DNA of 64,000 nt. Origin: Candidatus Uhrbacteria bacterium (lineage in GTDB: Bacteria > Patescibacteriota > Patescibacteriia > UBA9934 > GWF2-40-263). The notes beneath the pieces were generated by a model. That model saw only the letters and a program-made list of their open reading frames with translations. It was not told the DNA's origin and searched no databases. The translations under genes and the position numbers were made by a program. Every line of letters begins with the position of its first letter. Position 1 is the first letter of the stretch. This document shows, piece after piece, positions 2,351 through 51,130 of this stretch. The DNA lies in NCBI GenBank assembly GCA_016844925.1, contig JAERTI010000036.1, positions 79,863 to 143,862 on the forward strand. The letters run 5' to 3'.

Positions 2351-4180
2351 ATGTGTGGAATTGTTGGGTACGTAGGAACAAAACAGGCGGCACCTGTTCT
2401 CATGGAGGGGCTGCGAAAGCTCGAATATCGGGGATATGACTCCGCGGGAGTCTGTATTCAGAACGGTCGTCTGACGACCGTACGGTCAGAAGGAAAGATT
2501 GATGCGCTTGATGAAAAAGTGGGACGACACCATCTTCAGGGGACAGCAGGTATTGCCCACACACGTTGGGCAACACATGGGGTTCCTGAGGAGAGGAATG
2601 CGCACCCACATCGAGACTGCCAAGGAACGGTGGCCGTGGTGCATAACGGCATTATCGAGAACTTTGCCGAGCTTCGGGCTCAGCTCATCGGTGAGGGGCA
2701 TGCGTTTCATTCCGATACGGATAGTGAGGTGTTGGCGCATCTGATTGAGCGTGAGCGGTCTGCTGGGCATGTGGGCGTGCAGTGTGTGAGAGAGGCTCTT
2801 AAGTATGTTCGAGGGACGTATGGTCTTGTAGTGATGTTTAAAGATGTCCCTCAGACCCTCCTTGCTGCGCGCATGGGAAGTCCCTTGGTCATTGGTATTG
2901 GAGAGGGAGAACATTTTATTGCCTCAGACCCTTCGGCGCTTATTGAACACACACGCGACGTGATGTTTCTTGATGATGGAGAAATTGCCGCGATTAATTC
3001 TGAGGGGATCAATTTGTGTACGCTCGAGCAGCAGCAGGTTCCTCATAGAGTCGAGCATTTGGATTGGGATGTGGAGGCCGCGACTCGAGAGGGACATGCG
3101 CATTACATGCTGAAAGAGATTCTGGAGCAGCCGAAGGTCATAGAGAATAGTACTCGTGGAAGGATCGATTTGATTGCCGGACGAGCGGTCCTTGGGGGCC
3201 TTGATGAAGTATCTGACCGACTGAAGGAAATCGATCGGATCGTGATTGTCGGATGTGGGAGCGCGTACTACGCAGGGCTTGTTGGCGAGTATTTGTTCGA
3301 GGAGCTCGCGGGCGTGCCGGTGGAGGTTGAACTTGCCTCAGAGTTTCGGTATCGCAAGCCAATTATCACTGAGCGGACAGCTGTACTGGCCGTGAGTCAA
3401 AGTGGTGAGACGGCAGACACCCTTGAGGCTATTCGTGAGGCGAAACGAAAACACGCGCTCACGCTCGGGTTAGTGAACGTCGTGGGTTCATCGATTGCAC
3501 GCGCAACAGATGCTGGCGTGTACAACCATGCTGGTCCAGAGATTGGCGTCGCGTCGACAAAAGCTTTCGTGAGCCAGATGACAGTCCTTACCTTGATGGC
3601 TGTTCACTTGGGGCAGTTGCGAGGAACGCTCGATGGCGCGCGCGGTCATGAAGTGCTTGCTGGGTTGTATGAAATGCCGGAGTTGGTGCAGCAAGTTTTG
3701 TCATCGCGTGAGCAGATTGCGAGCGTCATGGAGCGATTCAGGGGGATGGAGAATTGTCTCTTTCTTGGACGAAAGTTCCAGGCGCCGATTGCGTATGAAG
3801 GTGCCCTCAAACTTAAAGAGGTGAGTTATGTGCATGCCGAGGGATACAGCTCGGGGGAGATGAAGCATGGACCGATTGCCCTCATTGATCAGAGCTTCCC
3901 ATCGATTGTGCTGTGCCCGCAGGACAGCGTGTATGAGAAAACGTGTTCAAATATTTCTGAGCTCCGTGCGCGCAAGGGACCGATCATTGCCGTGACGACG
4001 TGTGGTCCCATGGGGGCTGTTCCTGCAGATGAAGTCATTACAGTGCCGCACACAATTGAAGCACTTCAGCCAATTCTTACCGTCATTCCGTTGCAGTTAA
4101 TCGCTTACGAGGCAGCTGTGGCACGGGGCTTAGACCCGGATAAACCAAGGAACCTAGCCAAGAGTGTAACGGTTGAATAA
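2351..4180 (+). CDS. glmS: Glutamine--fructose-6-phosphate aminotransferase (isomerising)
   Basis: 609 aa. N-terminal MCGIVGYVG with the Cys2 nucleophile of class II amidotransferases, two SIS domains, C-terminal KSVTVE. Confidence 0.95.
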   Translation: MCGIVGYVGTKQAAPVLMEGLRKLEYRGYDSAGVCIQNGRLTTVRSEGKIDALDEKVGRHHLQGTAGIAHTRWATHGVPEERNAHPHRDCQGTVAVVHNGIIENFAELRAQLIGEGHAFHSDTDSEVLAHLIERERSAGHVGVQCVREALKYVRGTYGLVVMFKDVPQTLLAARMGSPLVIGIGEGEHFIASDPSALIEHTRDVMFLDDGEIAAINSEGINLCTLEQQQVPHRVEHLDWDVEAATREGHAHYMLKEILEQPKVIENSTRGRIDLIAGRAVLGGLDEVSDRLKEIDRIVIVGCGSAYYAGLVGEYLFEELAGVPVEVELASEFRYRKPIITERTAVLAVSQSGETADTLEAIREAKRKHALTLGLVNVVGSSIARATDAGVYNHAGPEIGVASTKAFVSQMTVLTLMAVHLGQLRGTLDGARGHEVLAGLYEMPELVQQVLSSREQIASVMERFRGMENCLFLGRKFQAPIAYEGALKLKEVSYVHAEGYSSGEMKHGPIALIDQSFPSIVLCPQDSVYEKTCSNISELRARKGPIIAVTTCGPMGAVPADEVITVPHTIEALQPILTVIPLQLIAYEAAVARGLDPDKPRNLAKSVTVE

Positions 4181-5129: not shown

Positions 5130-5206
5130 TGGAGGCCACGGTCGGATTCGAACCGACGCATAGAGGTTTTGCAGACCCCCGCGTTAACCAACTTCGCCAC
5201 GTGGCC
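5130..5206 (-). tRNA. tRNA-Cys (GCA), 3' CCA encoded
   Basis: Cloverleaf read from the reverse complement: acceptor GGCCACG/CGTGGCC, anticodon loop CTGCAAA, T-arm GTCGGTTCGAATCCGAC. Confidence 0.85.
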
Positions 5207-9845: not shown

Positions 9846-11033
9846 ATGCGTTACGTCATTATCGGAGGAGGTGTTGCTGGCACAACAGCCGCTGGAGAGC
9901 TACGGAAGCTCGACTCCTCTGCAGAGATCACACTTATTTCAGAGGAACAACACCCGCTGTATTCGCGGGTGTTGTTGCCGCATTATCTTCTGGGGAAGGT
10001 TGAGCGCGACCGCGTGTTTTTAAAAAAGGAAACCTGGTACGCAGAGCAGGAGATCGAGTGGCTGAGGGGGGAGATGGTGACGGTGGTGAATCCTCGCAAC
10101 AAATTTGTCGGGCTGCTGAGTGGGCGCGAGATTGAGTACGACAAGCTGCTCATCACCACTGGGGGTCATCCCCGTGTGATCGATGAGGACCTGCGTGGGG
10201 TGAGTTACTTCCGTACGCTCGATGACGCCGACCACATGAATCAATTGTTCCTCGGACGCGGCAGTAATGCTCGTGGAGGAATCTATGGAGGAGGGTTCAT
10301 TGCCTGTGAGTACCTTAATCTTTTTGCCCATTTCAAGATCCCAACAACGCTGGCTCATCGCGGCGCGCACTTTTGGACACGCGTGCTCGAGCCAGTGTCT
10401 GGTGAGCTGATCGCTAAGCATCTTACAGATCAAGGTGTTGAGATTCATGCCAATGCACCTCTTCAAGGGCTGGAAGGCGATAAGGAGCTGACCGGGTTTG
10501 TCACGAGTAAGGGCCGACATGAAGCAAGCATTTTTGGTGTGGGAATTGGAGTGGCACCAGATCTTTCATGGCTTGCCGAGGCTGGAATCGAGACGGGCTT
10601 TGGAATCAAGGTCAACGAATACCTCGAGACAAACATCCCTGACATCTACGCGGCTGGGGATGTGGCGGAGTACTTCGATACGATTCTTGGTCGCCAGCTC
10701 AACATTGGAAACTGGACCAATGCGATGAGTCAGGGGCGTGTGGTTGCTAAAACCATGGTGGGAGAGCGGACGGCATATGAGATGGTGACGTCCTATGCCA
10801 TGAATGTCCTTGGGCTCGATATGATTTTTATTGGCGATACACTTAAGGCTGTTGCCGACCAGGTTTGCCTGATTGGATCCATTGAAACAGGGGGAATCAC
10901 ACAGGTTCATGAGCGCGATGGACGAATCGTTGGAGGCGTGTGCCTTGGTCGAAATACAGACAGGGGAGCCATAACCAAAGGAATTAAAGAGAAAACACCT
11001 GCGTCAGAGATCATCAACACTTTGTCAGGATAG
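9846..11033 (+). CDS. FAD/NAD(P)-binding pyridine nucleotide-disulfide family oxidoreductase (putative ferredoxin or rubredoxin reductase)
   Basis: The ATG at 9846 lies 2 nt after the fdx stop. Has the Rossmann motif VIIGGGVAGTTAA, a second dinucleotide-binding site GGGFIACEY and the AAGDVAEY motif. Confidence 0.75.
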   Translation: MRYVIIGGGVAGTTAAGELRKLDSSAEITLISEEQHPLYSRVLLPHYLLGKVERDRVFLKKETWYAEQEIEWLRGEMVTVVNPRNKFVGLLSGREIEYDKLLITTGGHPRVIDEDLRGVSYFRTLDDADHMNQLFLGRGSNARGGIYGGGFIACEYLNLFAHFKIPTTLAHRGAHFWTRVLEPVSGELIAKHLTDQGVEIHANAPLQGLEGDKELTGFVTSKGRHEASIFGVGIGVAPDLSWLAEAGIETGFGIKVNEYLETNIPDIYAAGDVAEYFDTILGRQLNIGNWTNAMSQGRVVAKTMVGERTAYEMVTSYAMNVLGLDMIFIGDTLKAVADQVCLIGSIETGGITQVHERDGRIVGGVCLGRNTDRGAITKGIKEKTPASEIINTLSG

Positions 11034-11034
11034 A

Positions 11035-11063
11035 TTGACAAAGTACCGTTTTCTTGGTAAGAA
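11035..11063 (+). promoter_or_regulatory. Sigma70-like promoter (ATTGACAAAG family): TTGACA, 17 nt spacer, TAAGAA
   Basis: Sequence match. First of four related elements that precede high-GC genes. Confidence 0.4.
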
Positions 11064-11213
11064 AAGGCCTTCTTTACGTGCGGCGCAAGCCAAACATGAG
11101 AAGGTCTTTCTGTTTCCGAGTAGTGAACACTGGGCCTTGGTCTGGTGTTTTCGACGCGGAACTTCCTAGTACCTGACAACTCAGATGCGGCAAGCCGCAC
11201 GGAGGAGATCGCA

Positions 11214-13382
11214 ATGGCCGTGGACATCAGCATGTTCAAGTCCCTGGTTCGAGAGACATTCGAATCCAAGGGCCGCGAGGGCGCCGAGAGGATGCTTCGC
11301 GAAGGAATCGCCGCCGGCGAGGACACCAGTGGGCTGATCAAGAAGCTCTCGGTGTGGATGCTCGACGAGAATGGCGAGTTCATGACCATGGTGCGAGCCA
11401 TCCCCGGCTCGTCCGAGGTTCCGCACCTGGCCACCATCGCGGTGGCGCACATCCTCGAGGATTCGAATCTGATCGATTCGCTCATCCCCGACAACAAGAC
11501 GCCCGCGGTGCGCGGCCTCAAGTTCGCGCTCAAGACCGGCCTGGCCGGCATGATCGCCGGCATTGGCGAGGGAACCTCTGGGTTCCTGCGCGGCAAGGTC
11601 GCCGGCGTGGTCGACGACCATGTCTCGGCTGAGCGCGTCGCTGTGGCGGACCGCAAGGGACGCCTCGACGAGCTGCTCATCATCTCCGACGAGCGCTTCG
11701 GCCTGCGCCGACCGCTCATCATGGCGCGCGACGCCAGTGGTGATGTGCTCGCCACCGACCGTGGTTACCCGCGGGTGGAAGACGGTGAGGGCATGGCCTT
11801 CATCTCCGCCTGGGAGCGTGCCAACCCCGAGGTCACCACGACCAAGAAGTCCGGTGGCAAGGGTGGGCAGACCACCAGCGAGACCAAGAAGCTGACGCCG
11901 CCCTGGCGTCGCGTCTGGCTCAGCGAATACCTCGCGTTGCTCAAGTCCTCTCCGGGGACGACCGTGGATCAGGCGCTCATCGAGCGTCTGGAGAAGCTGG
12001 TCACCCCCTCCAAGTCTTCGGACTGGGAGGAGGGGTACTCCATGGAGACCCTGAGGGTGCAGCGTGCCACCGCCGCGTCCGCTCCGGACATGCCGTCCAT
12101 CATGCGGGCGGAGATCGAGGAGATGTGGCGGTCCGTGCGCAAGCGCAAGCCGCCCATGAAGCTCCTCAACTTCCATGTCGGTGAGACCTTCCACGAGAAG
12201 ATCACCGCCGAGGGCAAGCTCTCGGTGGACGACATCCAGTCGATGATCGACACCATGGACATGCACCTGCGTGGAGATCAGGGGCTGTTCACTCAGGGCC
12301 GCAAGGCACTGGGTGTGGCCTCGGACTACCTGCGGACACTCGGGACGTCCGAAGACGAGCGCAAGATGATCCGGGCAGGACTGCTCGGCATCCTCTCGCC
12401 CGGACTCCTCTGGGCCATGGGAGCGGTGCTGACGGTGATGCTCCTGGTCACCGCCATCGCGATGAGCGGATCCCCGTTCATGTCGACCAGCTGGGCCATC
12501 GGCATGATCTGTTCGATGGTGGGTGGAGTTATCGGCTTCAACATCACCTGGCCCGTCCCCTTCGTGGAGATGGTGCTCACCCCCTTGTTCGGGGGCAAGA
12601 CCGAAGATGACTGGCTCAAGGACATCGGTCGTCAGGTGGCGGCGTTCGCGCTGGCCCTCGGCTGCGGCATCCTGCCGCTGCTCATCTACTTCGAGGCTCC
12701 GGCCTTCGTGGCAGCCCTGTTCGTCTCTGGTCTGGTGCTGGCGCCCATCGGGTACCTGTTCACCTACGCACGCCTGGGCGAGCACGAGCAGGCCAAGCAG
12801 CTGGTGCTGCGCAACCTGAAGAAGGCGACCTGGGTCCTCATGGGAGCCACGTTGGTGGTGACCGTCGCCGTGATCCTGATCAACGGCCTGCTGTCTCACT
12901 GGGTCAGCGGTCCCGAGCTCATCCAGCTCGCGGTGTTGCTCCTGACGGGAGTTGTCTCGGGCTTTGTCCTGGGGCTCCTCAAGTCCTGGATCTTCCAGCT
13001 GATCGTGCTGGCCCTCGTCATCGGCTTCGCCGCCTGGCGCTTCACCAAGGCCGAGCGCGTCTGGGACGGTGGTGGCTACAAGATCCACGAGATCCCCGTG
13101 TGGCGGCCGGTCCTGATCGGTCTGGCCATCGTCTCGCTGATCGGCATCGGCTACCAGCCGGTGAAGGCAGAGTGGAAGCAGACGATCGCGAGTCGCTCCA
13201 TGGAGAGCTTCCTCGCCTTCGTGCAGAGCTGGGACGATCCTGATCCGGCTCCGGCCACAACTCCCGCGTCCACCGCGGGAGGGCAGAGTACCTCCACACC
13301 CAGTGGTGTGGGGAAGCCGCCGACACAGGCGGAGTGCAACGCCATGCCGCCGATGTTCCGCAAGGACTTCGGCTGCAAGTAG
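11214..13382 (+). CDS. Uncharacterised large protein (about 720 aa) with an N-terminal soluble domain of about 390 aa, a C-terminal domain of 8-10 TM helices, and a Pro/Thr-rich tail ending in a Cys pair. GC-rich coding sequence.
   Basis: The ATG at 11214 is preceded by GGAGGAG. Sampled 60-nt windows have roughly 62-67% GC with strongly GC-ending codons. Multiple hydrophobic helices occur between about aa 395 and 700. The equally long antisense ORF (11181-13388) is Arg/Gly/His-rich and judged spurious. I recognise no family. Confidence 0.6.
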   Translation: MAVDISMFKSLVRETFESKGREGAERMLREGIAAGEDTSGLIKKLSVWMLDENGEFMTMVRAIPGSSEVPHLATIAVAHILEDSNLIDSLIPDNKTPAVRGLKFALKTGLAGMIAGIGEGTSGFLRGKVAGVVDDHVSAERVAVADRKGRLDELLIISDERFGLRRPLIMARDASGDVLATDRGYPRVEDGEGMAFISAWERANPEVTTTKKSGGKGGQTTSETKKLTPPWRRVWLSEYLALLKSSPGTTVDQALIERLEKLVTPSKSSDWEEGYSMETLRVQRATAASAPDMPSIMRAEIEEMWRSVRKRKPPMKLLNFHVGETFHEKITAEGKLSVDDIQSMIDTMDMHLRGDQGLFTQGRKALGVASDYLRTLGTSEDERKMIRAGLLGILSPGLLWAMGAVLTVMLLVTAIAMSGSPFMSTSWAIGMICSMVGGVIGFNITWPVPFVEMVLTPLFGGKTEDDWLKDIGRQVAAFALALGCGILPLLIYFEAPAFVAALFVSGLVLAPIGYLFTYARLGEHEQAKQLVLRNLKKATWVLMGATLVVTVAVILINGLLSHWVSGPELIQLAVLLLTGVVSGFVLGLLKSWIFQLIVLALVIGFAAWRFTKAERVWDGGGYKIHEIPVWRPVLIGLAIVSLIGIGYQPVKAEWKQTIASRSMESFLAFVQSWDDPDPAPATTPASTAGGQSTSTPSGVGKPPTQAECNAMPPMFRKDFGCK

Positions 13383-13473
13383 GTACACCTCTCGGTCGAG
13401 TCAACCTCGGCCAACGCAGGTCTGTTTGACCCCTAATTCATGGGGAAAAACGGACCTTTTTTGTTTAAAATCA

Positions 13474-13502
13474 TTGACAAAACCCCTATTTTCTGCTATT
13501 GT
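13474..13502 (+). promoter_or_regulatory. Sigma70-like promoter (ATTGACAAAA family): TTGACA, 17 nt spacer, TATTGT
   Basis: Sequence match, inside an AT-rich 290-nt spacer within the high-GC block. Confidence 0.45.
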
Positions 13503-13669
13503 GCCCCGTTCACGCAACATCTATTTGAGGGGTCAGATAAGGTATTGATGTGTCCAGAGAACGGTTGTTTTCTGGAATCCCCTCGACATCAATGCCTTTT
13601 CTGTTCCTTCAAGAAGAATCTCTCGATGAGCGAGATGGTTCGATCACAACCTGAGAAAGGAGGAGCCAG

Positions 13670-14263
13670 ATGCGTTGCTTCTGGATTCCGATCATCCTGG
13701 CGCTCGTGGTGTCAGGGTGTGCGACCGTCACCAGAACCGTCGATACCACCCCGGTGGATCTCGACGACGATGGTGAGGCCGAGACGACGCGCGAGAGCGT
13801 GACGGTGCAGTACCGAGGCAGCCTGCCGCCCCGACCCGTGGACATCATGGATGCGACGGACGAGACGGACAGCGAGGCCCTGGAGCTGGCCGGACAGGCG
13901 ATCGATCGCGGGATGGCGACCAGCGTCACCGTGACCGATGGCAGCGTGAGCGTGCAGGCAGGACAGGGCTACTACGGCACCTACTCCAGCGCGCCGGTGA
14001 TCTCCCCCTCGGGAGAGGTCTACGCCGCGCCCGATGTGGTGAGCACCCCCTACGGCTACCAGGCCACGGGAGGAGGCTCGCTGCCCCAGCTGCAGACCAC
14101 CACCGTGGTCCACGTGCCTTCCACCGGTGCGACCTCTCGCCCCGGCGGTGAGGTCACCTGCCCCGGTGAAGGTGAGCCCGCGCCCAAGCCCGGTACGCCC
14201 GAGCACGACGCCTGCATGGAGCAGGCGCTGCGCGCGATGGGCAAGCGCGTCTACGGACAGTAG
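13670..14263 (+). CDS. Uncharacterised lipoprotein (lipobox LVVSGC); GC-rich coding sequence
   Basis: RBS AAGGAGGAG. Signal peptide plus lipobox cysteine. Asp/Thr/Gly-rich mature part. GC-rich third codon positions. Confidence 0.6.
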   Translation: MRCFWIPIILALVVSGCATVTRTVDTTPVDLDDDGEAETTRESVTVQYRGSLPPRPVDIMDATDETDSEALELAGQAIDRGMATSVTVTDGSVSVQAGQGYYGTYSSAPVISPSGEVYAAPDVVSTPYGYQATGGGSLPQLQTTTVVHVPSTGATSRPGGEVTCPGEGEPAPKPGTPEHDACMEQALRAMGKRVYGQ

Positions 14264-14342
14264 GTCAGCGGGGGAATGAGCTCACGTTGACCACACGAAA
14301 TTTCTGTGTGGCCCAGCAGAGCTCGGCCCCCTGGAGGAAGAC

Positions 14343-15296
14343 ATGAAGAAGCAGACCCTGACCGCCCTGGTCCTGATCATGCTGGCGACCCTGCTGGCCG
14401 CGCCCCAGGCGCTGGCCGACAACGAGCTGGCGATCCTGCGCTACTGCACGGAGAAGTACCCCGAGAAGGGAGAGCCCTTCAACCAATGCATCATCAGCAA
14501 GCGTCTGGTGGTAGCTGAGTACGAGCGCGACCAGCTCGCGCAGCAGCTGGCTCAGGCTCAGGAGGAGCTCGCGACCCTCACGGCACAGCTCCAGAGCGGG
14601 CGTGAGATGGACGAGGAAGTGATCGCGGAGCTCAGCAGGCTCTCGGAGCTCGTCGGTGAGCTGCAGAGCCAGGTGGCGAGCTACGAGGAGGAGCGTGAGA
14701 GCGCCCCCGAGCAGCCCGTCCAGGCGGCCCCGCAGCCCCAGCAGACCGCTCCGGTTCACGCCGGCGGTGTGGTCACCGTGACCACGGGCGTGTCGTACCG
14801 ACAGGGACGTCGCCCCGCGCTGGTCTCGGTCTACCCGATCGACGCCGATCCGGAGGTGGTGAACATTTCGGCGCTGACCCACAAGAACACCTACTACAAG
14901 TGTGGAGGTGCTCCGGGTCGGCTGGTGATGGTGACCAACCACGGTCTGCCCATGGCGGTCACGGCCCCGGAAGGAATGCCCAGCGGATTCGTCGAGGTCT
15001 ACGTGGACCTCAACGGTGACGGGGTCTCCGACGGCAGCCGCAAGGTCATCGACCCGAGCGTCCACGGTGACATCAACATCACCTGGCACGAGGGCGACGA
15101 CATCCGCTTCACCTACCTGAAGAACAGTGGTGAGGTCCTGCTGGTTCCCGGCCTGCCCCCGCAGACTCTCTGGGAGATCCCCAGCTCGGGTGTGAAGGGT
15201 TGTGAGCTCGATGACCCGCGACGTGACCGCGAGCTGGTCCGGGCAGCCGACGAACAGAGCCTGAGGCTCTACGACGGCGTCTGGCCCGTCCGCTGA
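14343..15296 (+). CDS. Uncharacterised secreted protein with signal peptide, coiled-coil segment, Pro/Gln linker and C-terminal beta-rich domain; GC-rich coding sequence
   Basis: RBS GGAGGAAG. Signal peptide MKKQTLTALVLIMLATLLAAPQALA. Heptad-like EELATLTAQLQ... region. The antisense ORF 14265-15356 is Arg-rich and judged spurious. Confidence 0.6.
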   Translation: MKKQTLTALVLIMLATLLAAPQALADNELAILRYCTEKYPEKGEPFNQCIISKRLVVAEYERDQLAQQLAQAQEELATLTAQLQSGREMDEEVIAELSRLSELVGELQSQVASYEEERESAPEQPVQAAPQPQQTAPVHAGGVVTVTTGVSYRQGRRPALVSVYPIDADPEVVNISALTHKNTYYKCGGAPGRLVMVTNHGLPMAVTAPEGMPSGFVEVYVDLNGDGVSDGSRKVIDPSVHGDINITWHEGDDIRFTYLKNSGEVLLVPGLPPQTLWEIPSSGVKGCELDDPRRDRELVRAADEQSLRLYDGVWPVR

Positions 15297-15437
15297 GAGA
15301 AAACCGTGCCTTGCGCACATTGACCTGCCTGAGGGTAGGTCCGTCCTCCGGGACACACGACGAAGCGCTCTTGGGCGGCTCGGACGATACGAAATCGTCC
15401 TGAGCCCCTAAGAGCGCTGTTGTATTTCACAAACCAA

Positions 15438-15465
15438 AAACTCCGGCCAGGAGACCGGAGCTTTC
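15438..15465 (-). terminator. Rho-independent terminator downstream of the first pilin-like gene
   Basis: On the minus strand: CTCCGGTCTCCTGGCCGGAG hairpin followed by TTTTTGGTTTG. Confidence 0.7.
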
Positions 15466-15476
15466 CGAATGATTGT

Positions 15477-15860
15477 TTAAGCGGTTGCTGTGACCAAGGC
15501 GTCGATCACGAAGTCGGCGATGGCATAAGCGGCGATGATGATCACCAGACCAATGACAGCCTGTGAAAGAAGCTTCTTGGCTTTCTTGACCTTGTCCTCT
15601 TCTCCCTGGGAGGTGAGGTAAAGGAATCCTGCGTAGACAACCAGCACCACGAAGATGATACCGAGCACGGAGAGCAGGACGGCAATCAAGTTACCAATGA
15701 GTTCCGGGAGCTCGTTTGCTGTTGCCTCTGAACCGATACCCGTTCCAACGTCCTCGAGGCTGCTCTGCGCTTCAGAAAGCTGAGCGAAAGCGGCCGCAGG
15801 GAGAAGGAGGGCTGGCAGGGTTGAGAGCCAGGCGGCGAATTTGATGTAAGCGTTTTTCAT
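15477..15860 (-). CDS. VirB2/TrbC-like pilin-family small secreted membrane protein (paralog 1 of 5)
   Basis: Signal peptide, polar segment, then two hydrophobic helices separated by the charged loop TSQGEEDKVKKAKK. Start taken at the ATG at 15860; the track ORF starts at an upstream TTG. Confidence 0.45.
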   Translation of the reverse strand: MKNAYIKFAAWLSTLPALLLPAAAFAQLSEAQSSLEDVGTGIGSEATANELPELIGNLIAVLLSVLGIIFVVLVVYAGFLYLTSQGEEDKVKKAKKLLSQAVIGLVIIIAAYAIADFVIDALVTATA

Positions 15861-15895
15861 AAAGATAGTGAGACTAAGTTTCAATTGAGTTTAGA

Positions 15896-16297
15896 TTAGC
15901 CAAGGGCGGTCGTAAGAGCTTGGACGAGGTACGTGGTGACCGCATAGGCTGTGACCACGATTAGGATACCGATGACGGACGTAGTGAGCATGCTCTTCGC
16001 CTTCTTCACCTTACCTTCTTCGCCAGCTGCCGTCATGTAGAGCATTCCCGCGTAGACCATGATGACCAGGAAGATGATGCCGGTCAGGGCAAGCATGGCT
16101 GCGATCAGATTTCCGATAATGGTCGAGATGGACGAGGTGGAAAATAATCCTCCCCCAGTAGTTTCGATGCCACTTCGGATGGTTTCAGCAGCGTTATCAT
16201 CAGCTAGGGCTTCTGGCGCGATGAAGATCGCGAGTCCCAGCACTGCCACTACAGCCAAGCCCATAAGGCTCAGGTTGAGCGTTCGTTTCAATGTCAT
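15896..16297 (-). CDS. VirB2/TrbC-like pilin-family protein (paralog 2)
   Basis: Same architecture; conserved AGEEGKVKKAKS loop between two TM helices. Confidence 0.45.
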   Translation of the reverse strand: MTLKRTLNLSLMGLAVVAVLGLAIFIAPEALADDNAAETIRSGIETTGGGLFSTSSISTIIGNLIAAMLALTGIIFLVIMVYAGMLYMTAAGEEGKVKKAKSMLTTSVIGILIVVTAYAVTTYLVQALTTALG

Positions 16298-16395
16298 AGA
16301 GGTTTGTTCAACCGTCTGTTGTTCACACGAGCTCGCGAATACTCACGCGCTCATGCAAACCCCCATCGTTGGCTGGATGGGGATTGATCTAGATC

Positions 16396-16839
16396 TTACG
16401 ATGTTGCGGAGACAATTGAATCAATAACGAAGCTGGCAATGGCGTATGCCGAGAGGATAATCACCAGTCCGATAATACCGGAGAAGATGAGCTGCTTCGC
16501 GTTCTTCACTTTGTCCTCAGCACCAGCGGCTGTCATCCACTTGAATCCTCCAAGCAAGATGATTACCACAGCGATCACACCAAGGAATCCTAGAGCGATA
16601 CGGATAATAGCTGCGATGGTGTCAACCAGATCCGCTGATCCAAGACCAGTGGCTAGTTGAAAGTCTGAGTCTGATCCCGTGCTACCACCAAAGAGTTCAT
16701 CTGCGGTCAGTTGAGTGTCAGTGGATGCTGCTGTTGCGCCAACATCGCTGATACCTACAAGTGCAATGGCCCCAATTGAGAGGGCGAGGATAGCACCAAG
16801 GAAGAATCCGATGCGTTTTTTAGATAATGTGTTTGTCAT
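16396..16839 (-). CDS. VirB2/TrbC-like pilin-family protein (paralog 3)
   Basis: Same architecture (GGFKWMTAAGAEDKVKNAKQ). The ATG at 16839 is preceded by AAGGGGGTGA; the track ORF starts at an upstream GTG. Confidence 0.45.
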   Translation of the reverse strand: MTNTLSKKRIGFFLGAILALSIGAIALVGISDVGATAASTDTQLTADELFGGSTGSDSDFQLATGLGSADLVDTIAAIIRIALGFLGVIAVVIILLGGFKWMTAAGAEDKVKNAKQLIFSGIIGLVIILSAYAIASFVIDSIVSATS

Positions 16840-16971
16840 AGACGTCACCCCCTTTCCTAATGAAAAAGAATTAAGGCGTTTATTGAGTTAAAAATGTATT
16901 CGAAGTTATTCTACCGTTTTTAAGCCTCTCCAGGTAACTAAGATATCCACACGGCCTATTTTCAACTGCTC

Positions 16972-17331
16972 CTAGACGACGGTGCCCTCTGTAAGAATGG
17001 AGAGAACGGCACTGACCAGCACATACGCGAGCAGCATGACAGTGAGGCCAAGAACAGCCCATTTAATAGTCTCTTTCCCCTTCTTGATGCGATCTTGTTC
17101 ACCCGCAGAGAACAGCCACTGGAATCCACCCCAGACAAACATGAGCAGGGCAACGGATCCTGTGATACCGAAGATGCCCTGAATGAGTCTTCGGACAATC
17201 TCGTTGACTCCTACATGTCCCAATGGGTCGGTCAGTGTTGTGGCTGCTGCTGAAGCGAGCGATGGGGCACTCAAGAGGGCTAGACTAACGAGCCCATACC
17301 AGGAGCGTCGAATTGTTTGTGTGGTCATCAT
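16972..17331 (-). CDS. VirB2/TrbC-like pilin-family protein (paralog 4)
   Basis: Same architecture (GGFQWLFSAGEQDRIKKGKE). The start ATG overlaps the upstream stop in an ATGA arrangement. Confidence 0.45.
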   Translation of the reverse strand: MMTTQTIRRSWYGLVSLALLSAPSLASAAATTLTDPLGHVGVNEIVRRLIQGIFGITGSVALLMFVWGGFQWLFSAGEQDRIKKGKETIKWAVLGLTVMLLAYVLVSAVLSILTEGTVV

Positions 17332-18062
17332 AGAGATGTTCTGAAGTGAGTATAGCAGCATTGAATTCGTGGGGATCCTTCACAAGTTTCCGTACAGGGG
17401 CCTGAATAGTAGAAATAGGATTCTGATGAATAGGAACTTGGAACGCTTTCTGTATCGATACAGGTGTAGTAGTCGTAGGTACCAAGGACCTCATCGTATG
17501 TTCCTGATCCATCTGGATAGGTTTGTTCACACTCACTCAGGCAGAGGCCGTCTTCTGTACAGGTGCTGTGATCTCCGCAGGCCCATCCAACGGTTGCATC
17601 AGTACAAAATGACGTGAACTCTTCGGTCTCATCGCTGGTTCCGTAGATGGTGCCTGATGTAAGTACTTGTTTGAGTGTATAGATACCAGTCCAGGCAAAC
17701 AGGACGATGAGGAGGCCGACGGTGCTGATTTTGATGTACTTCTTTCCTTTTTTCACACGCTCTGGATCACCGGCAGAAACCAACATCCAGAATCCCCCGA
17801 TGACATACATAAGGAGAACGATTCCCCCGATGATGCTCAGAATGTAGTTCCCCACGTTGCTGAACACCTGCATGATGTCGGTCAATGTGCAGTCACCCGT
17901 ATTTCCGCAGGCGTTGGAGATGCCTTGCATGAATGGCCCTACCTCACCCTCGGTACATTTTCCTGTTGGGCCAGGCTTACAGATATTGGATGAGTAGGCC
18001 TGGGTGCTAGCCGGGGCGAGTGTGAGCGAGACAAGAATGAGTGCTAAGAGAATCCTCCTCAT
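17328..18062 (-). CDS. Cys-rich VirB2/TrbC-like protein (paralog 5) with extra N- and C-terminal cysteine-rich extracellular segments
   Basis: Signal peptide; N-terminal Cys-rich stretch (CKPGPTGKCTEGE...CGNTGDC); pilin-like core (GGFWMLVSAGDPERVKKGKK); C-terminal roughly 110 aa with about 14 Cys. Confidence 0.45.
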   Translation of the reverse strand: MRRILLALILVSLTLAPASTQAYSSNICKPGPTGKCTEGEVGPFMQGISNACGNTGDCTLTDIMQVFSNVGNYILSIIGGIVLLMYVIGGFWMLVSAGDPERVKKGKKYIKISTVGLLIVLFAWTGIYTLKQVLTSGTIYGTSDETEEFTSFCTDATVGWACGDHSTCTEDGLCLSECEQTYPDGSGTYDEVLGTYDYYTCIDTESVPSSYSSESYFYYSGPCTETCEGSPRIQCCYTHFRTSL

Positions 18063-29205: not shown

Positions 29206-29898
29206 ATGGAGACGGCAATCTGGGAGGAATTCGATATGGGCATGTCCAAGAGTGTGTGGGGTCGCGATGGCGGAACTCACGCCATGAGTCAGAGGTTCTT
29301 CAACGTCATGCTGTGCTTCTGGACGGCTGTCGGCATCGCTTCGAGCGCCGTCGCCGCGAGTGTCAGTCTGACCTGGACCCTGGGATGGGGTCTGCTGCTG
29401 GGCACCTTCGCGATCGCCGTGATCGGCATCTTGATCGCGCTGCGCAGCGACGAGCCGATCATCAGCCTGCTCGGCTACGCCATGGTCACCATCCCCTTCG
29501 GGCTGATGCTCGGACCGCTGGTGGGAGCAACGGCAACCGCCGTGGTCATCAAGGCGTTCTTCATCACCACCGCGATGGTGGTGGTGCTCGGCGTGATGGG
29601 GGCCCTGATCCCCAAGAGCCTCGAGAGCTGGGCCCCGTACCTGTTCGGTGGGCTCTGCCTGCTCATCCTCGGCCTGCTGTTTGTTCCTCTCGCGGCCGCC
29701 TTCGGTCTGCCGGTGGAGGGAGCGCTGACCTGGATGGACTGGGCCGGCATCGTGCTGTTCGGCTTCTACGTCATCTTCGATCTCAACCGCGCCCAGCGCG
29801 TACAGCGGACGCACGACAACGCCATCGACTGCGCTCTGGCGGTCTACCTGGACTTCGTGAACATCTTCATCCGAGTCCTGGCACTGAGCGACGACTAG
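29206..29898 (+). CDS. Bax inhibitor-1/YccA-family (TMBIM) membrane protein; GC-rich coding sequence
   Basis: 230 aa, seven TM helices, C-terminal charged motif typical of BI-1/UPF0005. GC-rich third codon positions. The antisense ORFs 29077-29814 and 29172-30182 are judged spurious. Confidence 0.7.
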   Translation: METAIWEEFDMGMSKSVWGRDGGTHAMSQRFFNVMLCFWTAVGIASSAVAASVSLTWTLGWGLLLGTFAIAVIGILIALRSDEPIISLLGYAMVTIPFGLMLGPLVGATATAVVIKAFFITTAMVVVLGVMGALIPKSLESWAPYLFGGLCLLILGLLFVPLAAAFGLPVEGALTWMDWAGIVLFGFYVIFDLNRAQRVQRTHDNAIDCALAVYLDFVNIFIRVLALSDD

Positions 29899-32069: not shown

Positions 32070-34943
32070 CTAAGCCGCCGCACGCTCCCGTCGTCTTGGG
32101 AGTTTGCGCATGAGTGCTAGCGCAGCGAGCAGGGTGGCAACAACAAGAACAATGGTCATTCCCATGCGGGACTGCTGCTGATTAAGAAGGGCCTTGCCAT
32201 CTTGTGAAGTGCTAGCAAAGGCGACCGCCGCAGATTCTTCGATATGGATATCGGTCTCTGCTCGAGGGCGCAGACGTAGCTCTCCGTTGTAGCTCGTGAG
32301 AATGCCGGTAACCGTGAGTAGGTCTCCTCGTTCGAATTGGTTTGCATCGATAAGCGGATCGGATTTGAGGTAGATGGTCACGCGGTCCGGACCATCTTCA
32401 AGAACAAGCTTTGTTGAACTACGAGAGAGAATCTGTCCGCTTGTCTTGATGAGGAGACCTACAAGGGCCTCGTCGAACGCTTTGGCATCGTGCTGTGCTG
32501 GCATGGCTTGTGTGAGGTCACCTGTTGGGACGATATCTGTCGCATTGGTCACCTTCACACGCCGCTCTCCATAGGCGGTGCTCATGACACCTTCGATGCG
32601 TACTCGTGTATTCGTGTCGAGTTCTGGAAAGGTGGCGGCGTAGAAATATACTTGAACGCCGGCGCTCTCATCCTGGAGGTACATCACCTGGCGCCCGAAT
32701 GTTCCAGGGCTTGCGGTGACATAGCCTTCGACGCGTACACGTGTGTCATCAGGTTGAACTTTGGCCTGTTCAATGGAGAAGAAACTAACGTAGCTGGCTG
32801 CGGAAATGGATTGCGTGTTTGAGCTGGTGTTGGTCGTGGAAGAAGTTGTGCTGGAGCTCGTTGTCGTGCCTTGGGTCGATGCTACTTCTTTTGTTGTAAC
32901 AGCCTCATTTGTTTCGACGGCACTCTTCTTTGTTGAAGTATCTGTCGTCGACCAGCTCCAGTACGCGCCATCTCTATCGTATGTTCCCCCTCGAGGGGCA
33001 CTGCCATAGGTCACCATGTCGATCACATCGCCCTCTGGTGTAATCAGCTCCAGTGTGTCGCCGCTGTTGTTTAGAGAAAGATCGCTCTGCGGGCGATCCA
33101 CGCGGAGGGTGCTTCCTCCAGCAATCTTGAGAGAGCTGGAGAAGGTGTATCGGTCTGTAGAACCATCTTCGATGCTCCAGCCCTTGAGATCGATGCTCTC
33201 AAGGCCAGTGTTTGCAATTTCAATATATTCCTCCTGTGCGTCTGCTCCTGATGTGTTTGGGTAAAGCGAAGTGAATTCAAGGGTGACGGCGCCGGAGTAG
33301 GTAGTTTCATCTATTTCTGAGCCCTCTTGTTCTGGCGTAGATTCCTCATCTGAGGAATCTGGCGCCGTGTCTGTGTACTCTGTTGAGCTCGTGTAAGTCT
33401 CCTCTTCCTCGACAACCTCTTCTTGAGAAGTTTCCGCTTCATTTGCATCGATGGGCTCCTCGGGTTCGTCCTCCACGACTTCCGATTCTGTCTCAGCGCT
33501 CGTCTCACTTGCATCTGAGATGACATTTGGTCCGCCGGGCGTAGTGGTGTTGGTGAGAGTGAAGGAACCGCCGCTGTCACGCGCGAGACTGTCACCATCT
33601 TTTGGTGCGGGAAGATCTTCGCCCCCGTAGGTGATTGAGTCGATGACGGTTCTGGCTGCGTCGAGAAGTAAAATGGTGTCGGTATCGTTGTTGAGCTTTC
33701 CCCTCGGCCCCTCAACGACGATGTAGCTTCCGCTGGCAACAACGACAGGCTCAAGCTCGGTGGCTCGACCTGTGGCATCTTCAACCGTCCAGCCGGTGGT
33801 ATCGATGCTTTCGGTGGCGCGGTTCACAATCTCGATCCACTCTTCTCCCTCGTTTGGATCAACAACGAACTCGTTGATTTGCATAACACCAGGAGCGTAA
33901 GCGATGGTCGTGGTGGGTACATCTTCCTCGGGTTCGGAAGATGTCTCAGATGGTGTGTTCTCCTTTGAAGATTCATCTTGCAGATGCTCGTTTGATCCCT
34001 CGAGGGATTCAGTTTCATTTGCTTCTGCCTCCTCGGAAACCTCTTGAGGGTCGTTATTTTTCTCTGATGTTGTTTCTGGGTCAGTAACAGATTCCTCTTC
34101 GATAATTTCTTGTGTCTCCTCTATTTCGGCAGGCACAGAAGATGTTTCGCCAGAATTTTCAGTGTCCTCAGGAAGTGATTCTTCTGTATCTTGCGGAGTC
34201 TCTTCCGTTGCCTCTTGAGTTTCGTTGCCTGAAATTTCTTCTTCGAGCGCTTCTTCTGTTTCCCCCTCAAGGACCTCTTCCTCGTTTATTTCTTCAGATT
34301 CCTTTTCTGTCTCTGGAATAAACCATTCCTCGACGGCACCTGGTGTGCCCATGTCCTCAATATTCTGTTTAAAACCTGAGGCTGTCTGGGCATCGCTCCA
34401 AGCGGCTTCATCTGATCCGCTCAGCGTTTCATCGACTCGAGCCATGGATCGGTATCGTCCGTCATCAGTATCCGCAGCGCTGCCAGATCTTCCGGCGAAA
34501 GCTGATCCATCTCCTCCTGCCACATCGATGAGGGAACCGTCATGGTCATAGAGAGTTGCACGGAATCCGTCATTTGGCAGTGACAGGGTGGCGGTGATGA
34601 AGTTGGGTTCGACGCTGAGGGCCGAGTTGTCGTGGGAAGAATCATAGTTGGCGATAAGAAAGGTTGAGTAAGGTTCGATGACGGTGTCATCAGGCACGAC
34701 AAGGTCTTTCCCCGAACTGCCGGCTCCCGTGATAGTCCAGTTGGATAGATCGATGGGTGTGTCGGTCAGGTTTGTAAGCTCGATCCATTCATCAGAACTT
34801 GATTGACTCGAACCAGCCCAGGCAATCTCAGAAAAGATGACGGTGGGTGTTTGTGCGAAGGTCTTAATCGGTACAGCGACAAGCGATGCAAGAACGATCA
34901 TGGCAATCCACACTTTGTTGAATAGCAACATACGTTGGGTCAT
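32070..34943 (-). CDS. Large acidic surface-anchored protein (957 aa) with three lamin-tail-domain (LTD) repeats, an OB-fold-like domain and a C-terminal TM anchor
   Basis: Signal peptide. The LTD signature xEIAWAGS...DEWIELTN occurs three times. Long Glu/Ser/Thr-rich linkers. C-terminal hydrophobic helix plus RRRER. Confidence 0.6.
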   Translation of the reverse strand: MTQRMLLFNKVWIAMIVLASLVAVPIKTFAQTPTVIFSEIAWAGSSQSSSDEWIELTNLTDTPIDLSNWTITGAGSSGKDLVVPDDTVIEPYSTFLIANYDSSHDNSALSVEPNFITATLSLPNDGFRATLYDHDGSLIDVAGGDGSAFAGRSGSAADTDDGRYRSMARVDETLSGSDEAAWSDAQTASGFKQNIEDMGTPGAVEEWFIPETEKESEEINEEEVLEGETEEALEEEISGNETQEATEETPQDTEESLPEDTENSGETSSVPAEIEETQEIIEEESVTDPETTSEKNNDPQEVSEEAEANETESLEGSNEHLQDESSKENTPSETSSEPEEDVPTTTIAYAPGVMQINEFVVDPNEGEEWIEIVNRATESIDTTGWTVEDATGRATELEPVVVASGSYIVVEGPRGKLNNDTDTILLLDAARTVIDSITYGGEDLPAPKDGDSLARDSGGSFTLTNTTTPGGPNVISDASETSAETESEVVEDEPEEPIDANEAETSQEEVVEEEETYTSSTEYTDTAPDSSDEESTPEQEGSEIDETTYSGAVTLEFTSLYPNTSGADAQEEYIEIANTGLESIDLKGWSIEDGSTDRYTFSSSLKIAGGSTLRVDRPQSDLSLNNSGDTLELITPEGDVIDMVTYGSAPRGGTYDRDGAYWSWSTTDTSTKKSAVETNEAVTTKEVASTQGTTTSSSTTSSTTNTSSNTQSISAASYVSFFSIEQAKVQPDDTRVRVEGYVTASPGTFGRQVMYLQDESAGVQVYFYAATFPELDTNTRVRIEGVMSTAYGERRVKVTNATDIVPTGDLTQAMPAQHDAKAFDEALVGLLIKTSGQILSRSSTKLVLEDGPDRVTIYLKSDPLIDANQFERGDLLTVTGILTSYNGELRLRPRAETDIHIEESAAVAFASTSQDGKALLNQQQSRMGMTIVLVVATLLAALALMRKLPRRRERAAA

Positions 34944-37929: not shown

Positions 37930-41055
<3,126 letters not shown>

Positions 41056-41133
41056 ACCACTTCTGCGTTTGATTGAGTCTGATCAAACCAGTTTCTCTTC
41101 TACAATAAAACAACGAAAGAAAGAATCTTTTGT

Positions 41134-41243
41134 CTTGGTGCTCCTTCCAGAGAGGTCACACCCGTTCCCATCCCGAACACGGTAGTTAAGCTCTCTAGGG
41201 CCGATGGTAGTGCGTTCGCGCGAGAGTAGGTAGGCGCCAGGAC
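41134..41243 (+). rRNA. rrf: 5S ribosomal RNA
   Basis: CTTGGTGCTCCTTCCAGAGAGGTCACACCCGTTCCCATCCCGAACACGGTAGTTAAGCTCTCTAGGGCCGATGGTAGTGCG...GGCGCCAGGAC. Confidence 0.9.
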
Positions 41244-46656: not shown

Positions 46657-48105
46657 ATGCGCGTTTTCTCTCGCTGGATGATGCTGATGCTGTGCGCGCT
46701 GCCTCTCCTGGTGGCTGCCTGTGATCAAAACTCGATCGAGGTCGAGGGCGGTGACTCCGATGCCACGGGTGAGTCCCCAGAGCCGGCCCCTCCGCCGCTC
46801 GTGCCCCTGGAGCCTCCCGTCGTCACGACGGTCATGATCGGTGATCACGAGGCCTGGGTACCACCAGGGCCTCCGCGACTCTCCGACGTGCCCGAGAACC
46901 TGCTCGACTACATCGAGCGGGGCAAGCGGCTCATGGAGGGGGCGCGGTTCAAGAAGATGAGCTGCGTTCCCGAGCGCAAGCCGGACCTCACCTGGAAGCG
47001 TTGCCTCGGCGACGACTACCTGCTGGCGGCTGTCAGTCCTGATGGCAAGCTGGAGAAGATCGAGGTCTATGGGGGTGTCGCGAACTCTCCCGACAACTTC
47101 CGTGTTCGCTGTGAGCGCGAAGGAGCCTGCGAGGGTGGGGTGAACCCGCCGTTCATCGTGAGCTCCCCGCCGGGCTGGACCGTGGTCGCGGTGCGCAAGG
47201 CTGTCCCGGACAAGGAGGGCACTGAGGGCATCTCAGGCAAGGTGTACGTCCCGTACTCCACCCGGCTCAACACGCCGGAGTTGCGTCAGGCGGGGCTCGA
47301 GTACCTGCACCTAGTCACCGAGTCGGTCCGCTACGACCTGCTCGCCAAGGATGTGCGCTCCGGCCGCATTCACGGCAAGCACGTGCTCGAGACCGTGACG
47401 ATGCGCCATGCGGTCGTTCTCAGTCTCACTGAGCAGGTGTACTCCCCGGAGCTTTTCACCACCGGTGAGGAGATCGATCGGCTCGAGATGCTCAACCGCA
47501 TTCTCGTGCTCTACGCGATCAACCGCGAGGAGGCGTTCCGTTACGTCATGTCCAACATGGACGCGCGCGGAGCGTGGCAGATCATCCCCAAGAGCTGGGA
47601 TACGCTGCACGAGACCTACCCGGACGCGCAGCTTCCCGAGGACTTCGTCTACGGATCAACCAACCACCCTGTGTCCCTCAAGGCCGCCATCCTTCACACG
47701 GATGACCAGTGGTGGGGGCTCAAGCGTAAGGGCTGTGAAGATGGCCACATCGCTGAGTTCTCGGATCTCTCCGGCGATTGGGGTCCGTTGTTCGCAGCGG
47801 GCTACAACGGGTCGATGGCACGTGCCGACGCCGTCTACCACGCCTGTGGTGAGAACTGGCGCGATGGCGACTGCTGCAAGCAGATCGAGGATCCCGCCAA
47901 GCGGCTCGCTTGTCGGCCGCTGCGTGGCGAGACGCAGATGTACCTTCCCAAGTACGAGTGGATCGACCACCTGCTGTTCGACCAAGAGCAGCGCATTCGG
48001 GTCGAGGGGGTCACCTGGCCCCTCCTGCGAGAGCAGGCCCTTGCCTACGAGACGGCGCGCCAGCAGCGCCTTCAGGAAGAACGGTCAGTGGCTACCACGC
48101 AGTAG
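46657..48105 (+). CDS. Uncharacterised Cys-rich lipoprotein (lipobox LVAAC), 482 aa; GC-rich coding sequence
   Basis: Signal peptide plus lipobox; Pro-rich linker; 14 cysteines in the mature part (for example GDCCKQ). The internal antisense ORFs are Arg-rich and judged spurious. Confidence 0.6.
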   Translation: MRVFSRWMMLMLCALPLLVAACDQNSIEVEGGDSDATGESPEPAPPPLVPLEPPVVTTVMIGDHEAWVPPGPPRLSDVPENLLDYIERGKRLMEGARFKKMSCVPERKPDLTWKRCLGDDYLLAAVSPDGKLEKIEVYGGVANSPDNFRVRCEREGACEGGVNPPFIVSSPPGWTVVAVRKAVPDKEGTEGISGKVYVPYSTRLNTPELRQAGLEYLHLVTESVRYDLLAKDVRSGRIHGKHVLETVTMRHAVVLSLTEQVYSPELFTTGEEIDRLEMLNRILVLYAINREEAFRYVMSNMDARGAWQIIPKSWDTLHETYPDAQLPEDFVYGSTNHPVSLKAAILHTDDQWWGLKRKGCEDGHIAEFSDLSGDWGPLFAAGYNGSMARADAVYHACGENWRDGDCCKQIEDPAKRLACRPLRGETQMYLPKYEWIDHLLFDQEQRIRVEGVTWPLLREQALAYETARQQRLQEERSVATTQ

Positions 48106-50945: not shown

Positions 50946-51130
50946 ATGAAGGTATTGTACGGGACCGTTGACTTTTTGACCAAAATAGACTAGTTTGTGG
51001 TGTCGTTTGTAAGGCGGGAGTTAACCTGTCTTTTGAGCACAACCGTGCACGCGGAATCGTGCATTCTGTCTGAGGTGTATCGAAGCGGTGGTGCAAGCTG
51101 CTGTGAGACTACCGAAGGATGGAGGAAAGG

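Follow-up and report, generated by a model that had tools for sequence, protein, structure and literature searches.

Vertical inheritance and maintained third-position GC of a putative envelope gene trio beside a VirB2-like pilin array in one Parcubacteria clade

The 64,000-nucleotide stretch of Candidatus Uhrbacteria bacterium contig JAERTI010000036.1 (assembly GCA_016844925.1, positions 79,863 to 143,862 of the forward strand; hereafter the window, whose own numbering is used throughout) holds three consecutive genes, g1, g2 and g3, that are richer in GC than their surroundings. Are they a module brought in by transfer, as an earlier note made from the sequence alone had proposed, or old residents of this chromosome, and what might their products do? 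The three GC-rich open reading frames (ORFs) with strong Shine-Dalgarno sites described in that note were found again, the sites being of the GGAGG type in 3/3 genes, while its figure of ~4.3 kb of coding sequence is corrected to 3.7 kb within a 4.1-kb span. The trio is preceded by an iron-sulfur (Fe-S) operon (cysteine desulfurase, NifU, ferredoxin and a Pyr_redox_2 gene) and followed by a pilin array, past which are encoded an SBP_bac_1 protein, a nucleotidyl transferase and then Wzy/polysaccharide functions. The genes under study and their constant neighbour are:

11214..13382, plus strand: g1, 722 aa; the ATG lies 8 nt past GGAGGAG, and the open frame begins at GTG 11145
13670..14263, plus strand: g2, 197 aa, lipoprotein
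14343..15296, plus strand: g3, 317 aa, predicted secreted protein
15477..18062, minus strand: array of five VirB2-like pilin genes (PF18895, T4SS_pilin), neighbour of the trio in 8/8 lineages

The compositional break is sharp. GC content in 1-kb steps is 0.61-0.67 over 11-15 kb versus 0.49-0.53 on both sides; in 300-nt bins it goes up at ~11.2 kb, is 0.48-0.51 in the g1-g2 spacer and comes back down after ~15.4 kb. The trio genes have a GC of 0.65-0.69 and their neighbours of ~0.52. GC at third codon positions (GC3) is 0.874 in g1, 0.848 in g2 and 0.862 in g3, against 0.54 for 13 neighbouring genes pooled (maximum 0.65), so that the break and the GC-ending codons noticed earlier are confirmed by computation. 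This step at the block borders speaks for recent horizontal transfer of a GC-rich three-gene island from a high-GC donor, as do the lack of homologues in family libraries and the position of other GC-rich single genes adjoining tRNA genes, one of which is present in lineage L002 and missing from the window.

The relatives of the window argue against such a recent arrival. Syntenic loci were located in L002-L004, L001/L006, the P0004 contig, L008, L007, L019, L010 and L020 which, with the window, were counted as eight lineages. The order Fe-S operon, g1 g2 g3, PF18895 array, SBP_bac_1 gene is found in all eight lineages examined, the Fe-S operon being present in every one whose contig reaches upstream, while g1 identity to the window goes from 87% down to ~20%. 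Five distant g1 members that were looked up (P0007, P0008, P0013, P0034 and P0044) all lie in this slot, and no g1 homologue outside it was seen among the family members located. The borders hold no tRNA gene (the nearest are at 5130 and 20525), and no integrase-family or mobility gene is found among the adjacent genes scanned (Pyr_redox_2, pilin), direct repeats not having been searched for; both borders consist of conserved promoter or terminator sequence. Since the slot is the same in all lineages and its regulatory borders are conserved, the reading as a co-transferred module is unsupported. Of the two observations that the earlier note had set against its own proposal jointly, namely ordinary housekeeping families in conserved synteny, the synteny is there and the housekeeping families are not.

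The trio resembles classical genomic islands in the sharp compositional step at its gene borders. It departs from them in that it is not strain-variable, mobility genes are unseen at its scanned borders, no amelioration is apparent and it is GC-richer than the backbone; many genomic islands are AT-richer than the backbone. Its deviant composition is kept in all lineages, as follows:

Window: block GC3 0.87, neighbour GC3 0.54
L002: block GC3 0.86, neighbour GC3 0.54
L001: block GC3 0.78, neighbour GC3 0.40
L008: block GC3 0.76, neighbour GC3 0.54
L007: block GC3 0.75, neighbour GC3 0.60
L019: block GC3 0.88, neighbour GC3 0.65
L010: block GC3 0.59, neighbour GC3 0.40
L020: block GC3 0.57, neighbour GC3 0.38

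Each block gene exceeds each neighbour in GC3 in 8/8 lineages, with an offset of +0.15 to +0.38 (mean 0.25), and block and backbone GC3 are correlated across the eight (r = 0.75). The excess in GC at first and second codon positions (GC1 and GC2) is only ~+0.05 in most lineages. The offset is still present where g1 identity has dropped to 19-27%, over backbones whose GC3 runs from 0.38 to 0.65. Because it recurs across lineages and tracks the backbone of each, the bias is maintained and is not the leftover of a transfer; its persistence over such different backbones implies a gene-specific force acting on synonymous sites. Recent transfer thus deserves next to no credence. The trio is vertically inherited and restricted to one clade of Parcubacteria (Patescibacteria/Candidate Phyla Radiation, CPR) and is not an acquired island; its GC3 offset is actively maintained and gene-specific, in a manner that ordinary models of transfer and amelioration do not explain. 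A deviant composition is commonly taken as a sign of gene transfer, yet the strong GC3 deviation seen here has come down by vertical descent. A precedent for a multi-gene locus that is conserved, passed on vertically and raised in GC is given by the head-tail clusters related to the Rhodobacter capsulatus gene transfer agent (RcGTA), whose GC is above that of the genome with the excess in GC1 and GC2 and an equal GC3 (PMC7360931). The trio differs from them because its excess is mainly in GC3 (+0.15 to +0.38).

By the sequence comparisons available, the trio proteins evolve several-fold faster than those encoded by the flanks. In genomes whose flank proteins are 61-93% identical (cysteine desulfurase 77-81%, NifU 82-93%, Pyr_redox 61-72%, SBP 69-77%, NTP-transferase 78-90%), identities are 25-48% for g1, 29-55% for g2 and 35-47% for g3. 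The ratio of nonsynonymous to synonymous divergence (dN/dS) of the block is 0.11-0.30 versus L002 and 0.36-0.52 versus L001, while flanks with a finite estimate of synonymous divergence (dS) have 0.01-0.14. In the comparison to L002, dS is 0.11-0.27 in the block and 0.18-0.80 in most flanking genes, and nucleotide identity is 95-99% over most of the block versus ~90% in the backbone. Three stretches of g1 (11932-12381, 12682-12981 and 13132-13281) are exceptions to this similarity, with only 75-84% identity. Further patches are found at 16582-16731 in the third pilin gene and at 10432-10581 in the Pyr_redox gene, so that all patches taken together have 63-84% identity to L002 in a background of 90-99%. 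The patches in g1, the third pilin gene and the Pyr_redox gene are due to mosaic recombination or to localised diversification. The rank order of g1 distances roughly follows that of the flanks.

These properties bear on the possibility that the GC excess was imported, either by an ancient transfer that has ameliorated slowly or by repeated allelic replacement from GC-richer relatives. The g1 mosaic, the block identity above that of the backbone and the block dS below that of the flanks can all be claimed for import. Four-fold degenerate sites, compared between the window and L001 in conserved codon families, are near saturation in block and flanks alike: identity is 0.454 in the block (0.318 expected from independent draws) and 0.358 in the flanks (0.248 expected). 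Saturation is not complete, with ~20% residual identity, which leaves some room for imported sequence. At these sites GC is 0.82 in the window and 0.70 in L001 for the block, versus 0.52 and 0.37 for the flanks. For the Bax1-I family gene at 29206, another GC3-rich gene of the window, the closest homologues outside synteny (51-57% identity) are encoded on contigs that are GC-rich throughout, and SufBDS is found on one of these contigs, a further point in favour of import. Import is nevertheless quite improbable for the trio: the offset holds at 19-27% g1 identity and across backbone GC3 from 0.38 to 0.65, none of the g1 family members seen belongs to a GC-rich genome, and g1 distances rank broadly as those of the flanks.

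The enrichment is confined to coding third positions and ends at coding borders. In the block, usage falls to 0.00 for Lys AAA, 0.03 for Phe TTT, 0.00 for Tyr TAT, 0.00 for Ile ATA, 0.02 for Gln CAA and 0.00 for Pro CCA. The push to G or C is not uniform: Gly GGT (0.27), Gly GGA (0.20) and Arg CGT (0.20) are retained, GGG is down, and Thr ACG is not up whereas ACC goes from 0.29 to 0.67. Motifs containing TA at codon junctions are depleted beyond codon usage when pooled GC-rich coding sequences are compared to their synonymous-codon shuffles (observed versus expected counts: GTAT 0 vs 9.8, TATC 1 vs 10.9, TAA 3 vs 17). Avoidance of one specific short motif was considered and rejected, only the general depletion of TA motifs being seen.

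The main competitor for the origin of the bias is GC-biased gene conversion, in which the block would be a hot spot of exchange between surface alleles and biased mismatch repair would raise third-position GC. The mosaicism of g1 and the high block similarity of the window to L002 point to frequent recombination, the offset is stable across lineages, and bacterial recombination hot spots with raised GC are described in work cited in PMC7360931. The arrest of enrichment at coding borders speaks against conversion, the 287-nt g1-g2 spacer having a GC of 0.46, though this spacer is functionally constrained. So does the codon-specific nature of the rise, in which GGG and ACG do not take part and GGT and CGT are kept. 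An offset of +0.15 to +0.38 in GC3 is also far above the effects reported for GC-biased conversion in bacteria. Conversion is consequently considered somewhat unlikely. Selection on synonymous sites, at the translation or mRNA level, is the tentatively favoured cause; the codon-specific rise, the depletion of TA motifs, the arrest at coding borders and the low dS of the block lean to it. Finding the force that acts on synonymous sites would bear on codon usage, recombination and expression in streamlined symbionts.

Antisense ORFs in phase with the trio accompany this codon usage:

11181-13388, minus strand: antisense ORF over g1, full-length
13712-14206, minus strand: antisense ORF over g2
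14265-15356, minus strand: antisense ORF over g3, full-length

They were examined as candidate overlapping genes and rejected, since antisense frames spanning the full length of g1 and g3 are confined to the window and L002, those of the other lineages being broken. They arise because TTA, CTA and TCA codons are avoided, and are a by-product.

The products of the trio have few relatives. Neither g1-g3 nor two other GC-rich ORFs of the window have a significant match in Pfam, NCBIfam, PHROGs or PADLOC; the absence of a Pfam-like signature stated earlier holds in these libraries and also in PDB. PADLOC models of anti-phage defence yield only coiled-coil noise with the trio (E >= 0.0025) and thus no evidence for the defence role that had been envisaged. 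A word-indexed homologue search brought only five g1 relatives (identity 100, 87, 54, 50 and 48%) and its profile query none beyond these five. A HMMER profile built from the five and run against 1.84e9 representatives defines a g1 family of 49 proteins, nearly all of ~700 aa and aligned over their full length. The closest named relative of g1 belongs to a metagenome-assembled genome of a "Parcubacteria group bacterium", and a search for related loci made with the alignment of close sequences found one GTDB species. Pfam has zero matches to 39 members of the g1 family, and sequence and profile searches find no PDB match for g1. The same word-indexed search with g3 recovered only g3 itself. Judged by these searches, the trio is a set of three putative protein families not previously described, tied to CPR pilin-array loci.

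The kinds of product that the earlier note had assigned, a polytopic membrane protein, a lipoprotein and a secreted coiled-coil/beta protein, are supported. Protein g1 has a soluble amino terminal region of ~380 aa without signal peptide. Eight membrane helices are predicted after it, then come a Pro/Thr/Ala linker and, at the carboxyl terminus, Cys-X12-Cys. The motifs PPWRR.WLSEY, SDWEEGYS, KITAEGKLS and LRGDQ of the amino terminal domain are shared within the close group; family-wide conservation extends to P64-G65, D152, D349, the terminal Cys pair and, within a membrane helix, a GR..AF motif. The AlphaFold model obtained from a 51-sequence alignment (mean predicted local distance difference test score, pLDDT, 78.7; predicted template modelling score, pTM, 0.44) features a mixed alpha/beta amino terminal domain and eight long helices; with only 5 sequences aligned, no usable model came out (pLDDT 41). 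Fold comparison of the former (pLDDT 79) brought no specific match, and neither sequence nor fold comparison detected transporter, kinase or sensor domains in g1. Loop Lys and Arg counts across the family place the amino terminus inside the cell and leave the side of the carboxyl terminal tail ambiguous.

Protein g2 has the lipobox LVVSG|C, which fits [LVI][ASTVI][GAS]C and was read from the sequence. Its conserved parts are the lipobox, a V.V.Y.G segment and the carboxyl terminal V.CP...E..AC with its Cys pair; the lipobox Cys and this pair are invariant in 6 lineages. The g2 orthologue set has zero Pfam matches, and a weak profile match to an FKBP structure in PDB (E = 0.004) was judged unconvincing. 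Protein g3 begins with a predicted signal peptide, after which come a Cys pair, a coiled coil, a linker rich in Pro and Gln and a conserved carboxyl terminal beta domain. Its hydrophobic amino terminus, read by eye, ends in AQALA|DN, and ALA|D is kept in 5/6 orthologues. The beta domain has the motif CGG..G...TNHG.PM and a D-x-N/S/D-G-D/N-G-x-x-D loop; in the form D-x-N-G-D-G-x-x-D-G, we take this loop to resemble a calcium-binding one. In the L007 orthologue the beta domain is kept and the coiled coil is gone. Searches of g3 and its orthologue set in family libraries, including Pfam, gave coiled-coil noise only.

Among close lineages the intergenic DNA varies less than the coding sequences on either side of it. 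The following elements were recognised:

11035..11063, plus strand: g1 promoter-like site, with -35 TTGACA at 11035-11040, a 17-nt spacer containing TG and -10 TAAGAA at 11058-11063
11063..11118, plus strand: g1 leader hairpin and U-rich tract, terminator- or attenuator-like (minimum free energy, MFE, -21.5 kcal/mol, z = -3.4)
13418..13463, plus strand: intrinsic-terminator-like hairpin and T-run 3' of g1 (MFE -23.1 kcal/mol, z = -4.7)
13474..13502, plus strand: g2-g3 promoter, TTGACA, 17 nt and TG-extended TATTGT, with 10/12 positions matching
13520..13617, plus strand: g2 leader hairpin of ~100 nt (MFE -48.1 kcal/mol, z = -6.9)
15360..15427, plus strand: strong terminator-like hairpin 3' of g3 (MFE -45.7 kcal/mol, z = -9.8), conserved in alignment A11
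15436..15465, minus strand: terminator hairpin and U-run closing the convergent pilin array (MFE -24.4 kcal/mol, z = -6.1), conserved

The trio is organised as two regulated transcription units, g1 alone and g2-g3, both having an invariant ATTGACA at -35 and a TG-extended -10. The g1 site, which a simple promoter scan missed on account of its weaker -10 hexamer, was read from the sequence, and 5 lineages (alignment A10) share its ATTGACA without variation. The hairpin just past it, whose arms GGCCTTCTT / AGAAGGTC are kept in 5 lineages, looks like an attenuator with its U-rich tract. The hairpin 3' of g1 is conserved in the window, L002, L008 and L001. The ~290-nt AT-rich spacer between g1 and g2, to which the earlier note had assigned a promoter, does carry one in its 287 nt; this promoter is conserved in the alignment and its TTGACAAA box is found in L007 and L020 too. 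RNAalifold folds the g2 leader hairpin into 41 pairs, 9 of them with compensatory changes (4 sequences), and Rfam has no family for this leader. A clade-wide distribution of the g2 hairpin was rejected: it is specific to the subclade of window, L002, L001 and L008 and absent in L007, L019 and L020.

What could such a module do next to a pilin array? Two of the five array ORFs were scanned here and match Pfam PF18895 with E = 1e-10 and 5e-10; the other three were assigned from precomputed PF18895 matches on the orthologous arrays of relatives. VirB2-like pilin arrays (PF18895/PF04956), each made up of 2-11 divergent paralogues, are known from 383 CPR assemblies; they are reported to be essential for epibiotic growth in Ca. 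Southlakia epibionticum, and most CPR pilin genes are found near virB4, with VirB3, VirB6 and TrsD (bioRxiv 10.1101/2025.01.22.634366). The locus studied here is alike in its five-gene PF18895 array, of which the trio is the constant neighbour in this clade. It differs because no ORF of at least 600 aa in the window is a VirB4, all of them being otherwise assigned, and because the components given in that work do not include g1-g3. The trio is also an analogous set to VirB6/TrbL and the VirB7-type lipoproteins of type IV secretion systems, with its polytopic protein, small lipoprotein and secreted protein beside VirB2-like genes. The difference is that the VirB6/TrbL profile (PF04610) matches neither g1 nor any of 39 family members, that solved VirB6 chains have no fold similarity to the g1 model, and that the trio is not encoded with virB4 and other type IV secretion core genes, a VirB4-sized ATPase being absent from the window.

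The trio is best read as a clade-specific, vertically inherited and diversifying surface or envelope module, likely a surface or host-contact apparatus that perhaps acts with the pilin array; this is moderately probable. High dN/dS and mosaic recombination fit components of the surface that face a variable partner. From the predicted features we infer a topology and a complex in which g1 would be a platform embedded in the membrane, its large amino terminal domain facing the cytoplasm, g2 a lipoprotein tethered on the outer face of the membrane, and g3 a secreted protein whose coiled coil would form a stalk and whose beta domain would form a head. All three proteins have a conserved Cys pair in a segment that is likely non-cytoplasmic, and disulfide bonds may stabilise exposed loops there. 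The g1-g2-g3 assembly would meet a variable partner, be it the host cell, a phage or another, and might cooperate with the VirB2-like array in anchoring, assembly or adhesion. The adjacency of trio and array faintly hints at this functional link. Next to poorly understood pilin arrays of the essential type, the trio makes a concrete host-contact candidate composed of three new families. Hypervariable loci of surface genes at conserved genomic positions, capsule and O-antigen loci among them, are like it in staying in one place, diverging fast, having mosaic alleles and coding for envelope products. They change their gene content and are usually AT-richer, in contrast to the trio with its constant gene content, diverging sequence and raised GC3.

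Several observations weigh against a host-contact module linked to the array and against the cause favoured for its codon bias. Adjacency to the array is weak evidence because the whole region from GlmS to Wzy is collinear in the clade; the Fe-S operon is as constant a neighbour of the trio as the array; and trio and array are convergent and separately terminated. High expression is uncommon among fast-evolving proteins, a point against simple translational selection. Eight helices, as in the AlphaFold model, and an inside amino terminus would leave the Cys-bearing g1 tail in the cytoplasm. The Lys/Arg-rich loop 7-8 and the Cys pair suggest, however, seven crossings with the tail outside.

The same collinearity and the separate terminators of the convergent units are compatible with a pilin adjacency that reflects inherited gene order only, the trio being an independent sensor, transporter or envelope-stress module. 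The cytoplasmic domain and membrane bundle of g1, an arrangement met in sensors and transporters, go in this direction. The failure of sequence and fold searches to detect transporter, kinase or sensor domains goes in the other, as does a divergence rate that is unusual for housekeeping transport or sensing. An independent module is a plausible option, to which we give less than even credit. Returning to the preferred host-contact module, its boldest version holds that g1-g3 are a hitherto unknown platform in the membrane, lipoprotein and secreted adaptor that assemble or anchor the VirB2-like filaments of this clade without a nearby VirB4, and that their extreme GC3 offset marks a distinct class of codon usage, which at least four other genes of the window share and which is kept by selection, as a regulon at the codon or mRNA level, or by strong GC-biased conversion at surface loci that recombine. 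This combined version is unlikely. If true, selection or strong conversion behind the GC3 class would represent an unreported intragenomic compositional heterogeneity in a streamlined symbiont.

The four other single genes with the same GC3-rich codon usage as the block, whose GC above 0.6 coincides with gene borders, are:

29206-29898, plus strand: Bax1-I family membrane protein, GC3 0.87
46657-48105, plus strand: lipoprotein orphan starting ~180 nt from tRNA-Ala, GC3 0.82
51119-51859, plus strand: orphan without family match, GC3 0.73
55042-55923, minus strand: orphan without family match, GC3 0.82

The Bax1-I gene is syntenic in L012 (3005-3679), where its GC3 is 0.91 versus 0.60-0.63 in neighbours and where identity to the window is 82% for RuvB and 65% for Bax1-I. 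The other nearest homologues (51-57%; L011, L013-L018) are those of uniformly GC-rich contigs, which come from unrelated bacteria, and hint at an old transfer of this gene from a high-GC lineage. In L002 a 765-bp insertion at ~3113-3878 codes for a GC-rich 194-aa orphan (GC3 0.81) and is lacking in the window at the corresponding point (~5093, beside tRNA-Cys 5130-5206). Long-standing residents and some mobile single-gene cassettes may thus both belong to the GC-rich class.

Two further features of the window were noted. The 23S rRNA match at 37935-41057 (plus strand) covers 3123 nt versus 2925 positions of the model, which suggests ~200 nt of insertions; it is followed by the 5S at 41134-41242 (plus strand). 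The rRNA genes appear to be unlinked, since 16S was not detected anywhere in the window and the gene upstream of the 23S codes for a SPOUT methyltransferase on the opposite strand. The ORF 32070-34943 (minus strand) codes for a large protein of 957 aa with three lamin-tail domains and OB-fold/DUF5689 matches, which may be exposed at the surface or bind nucleic acids.

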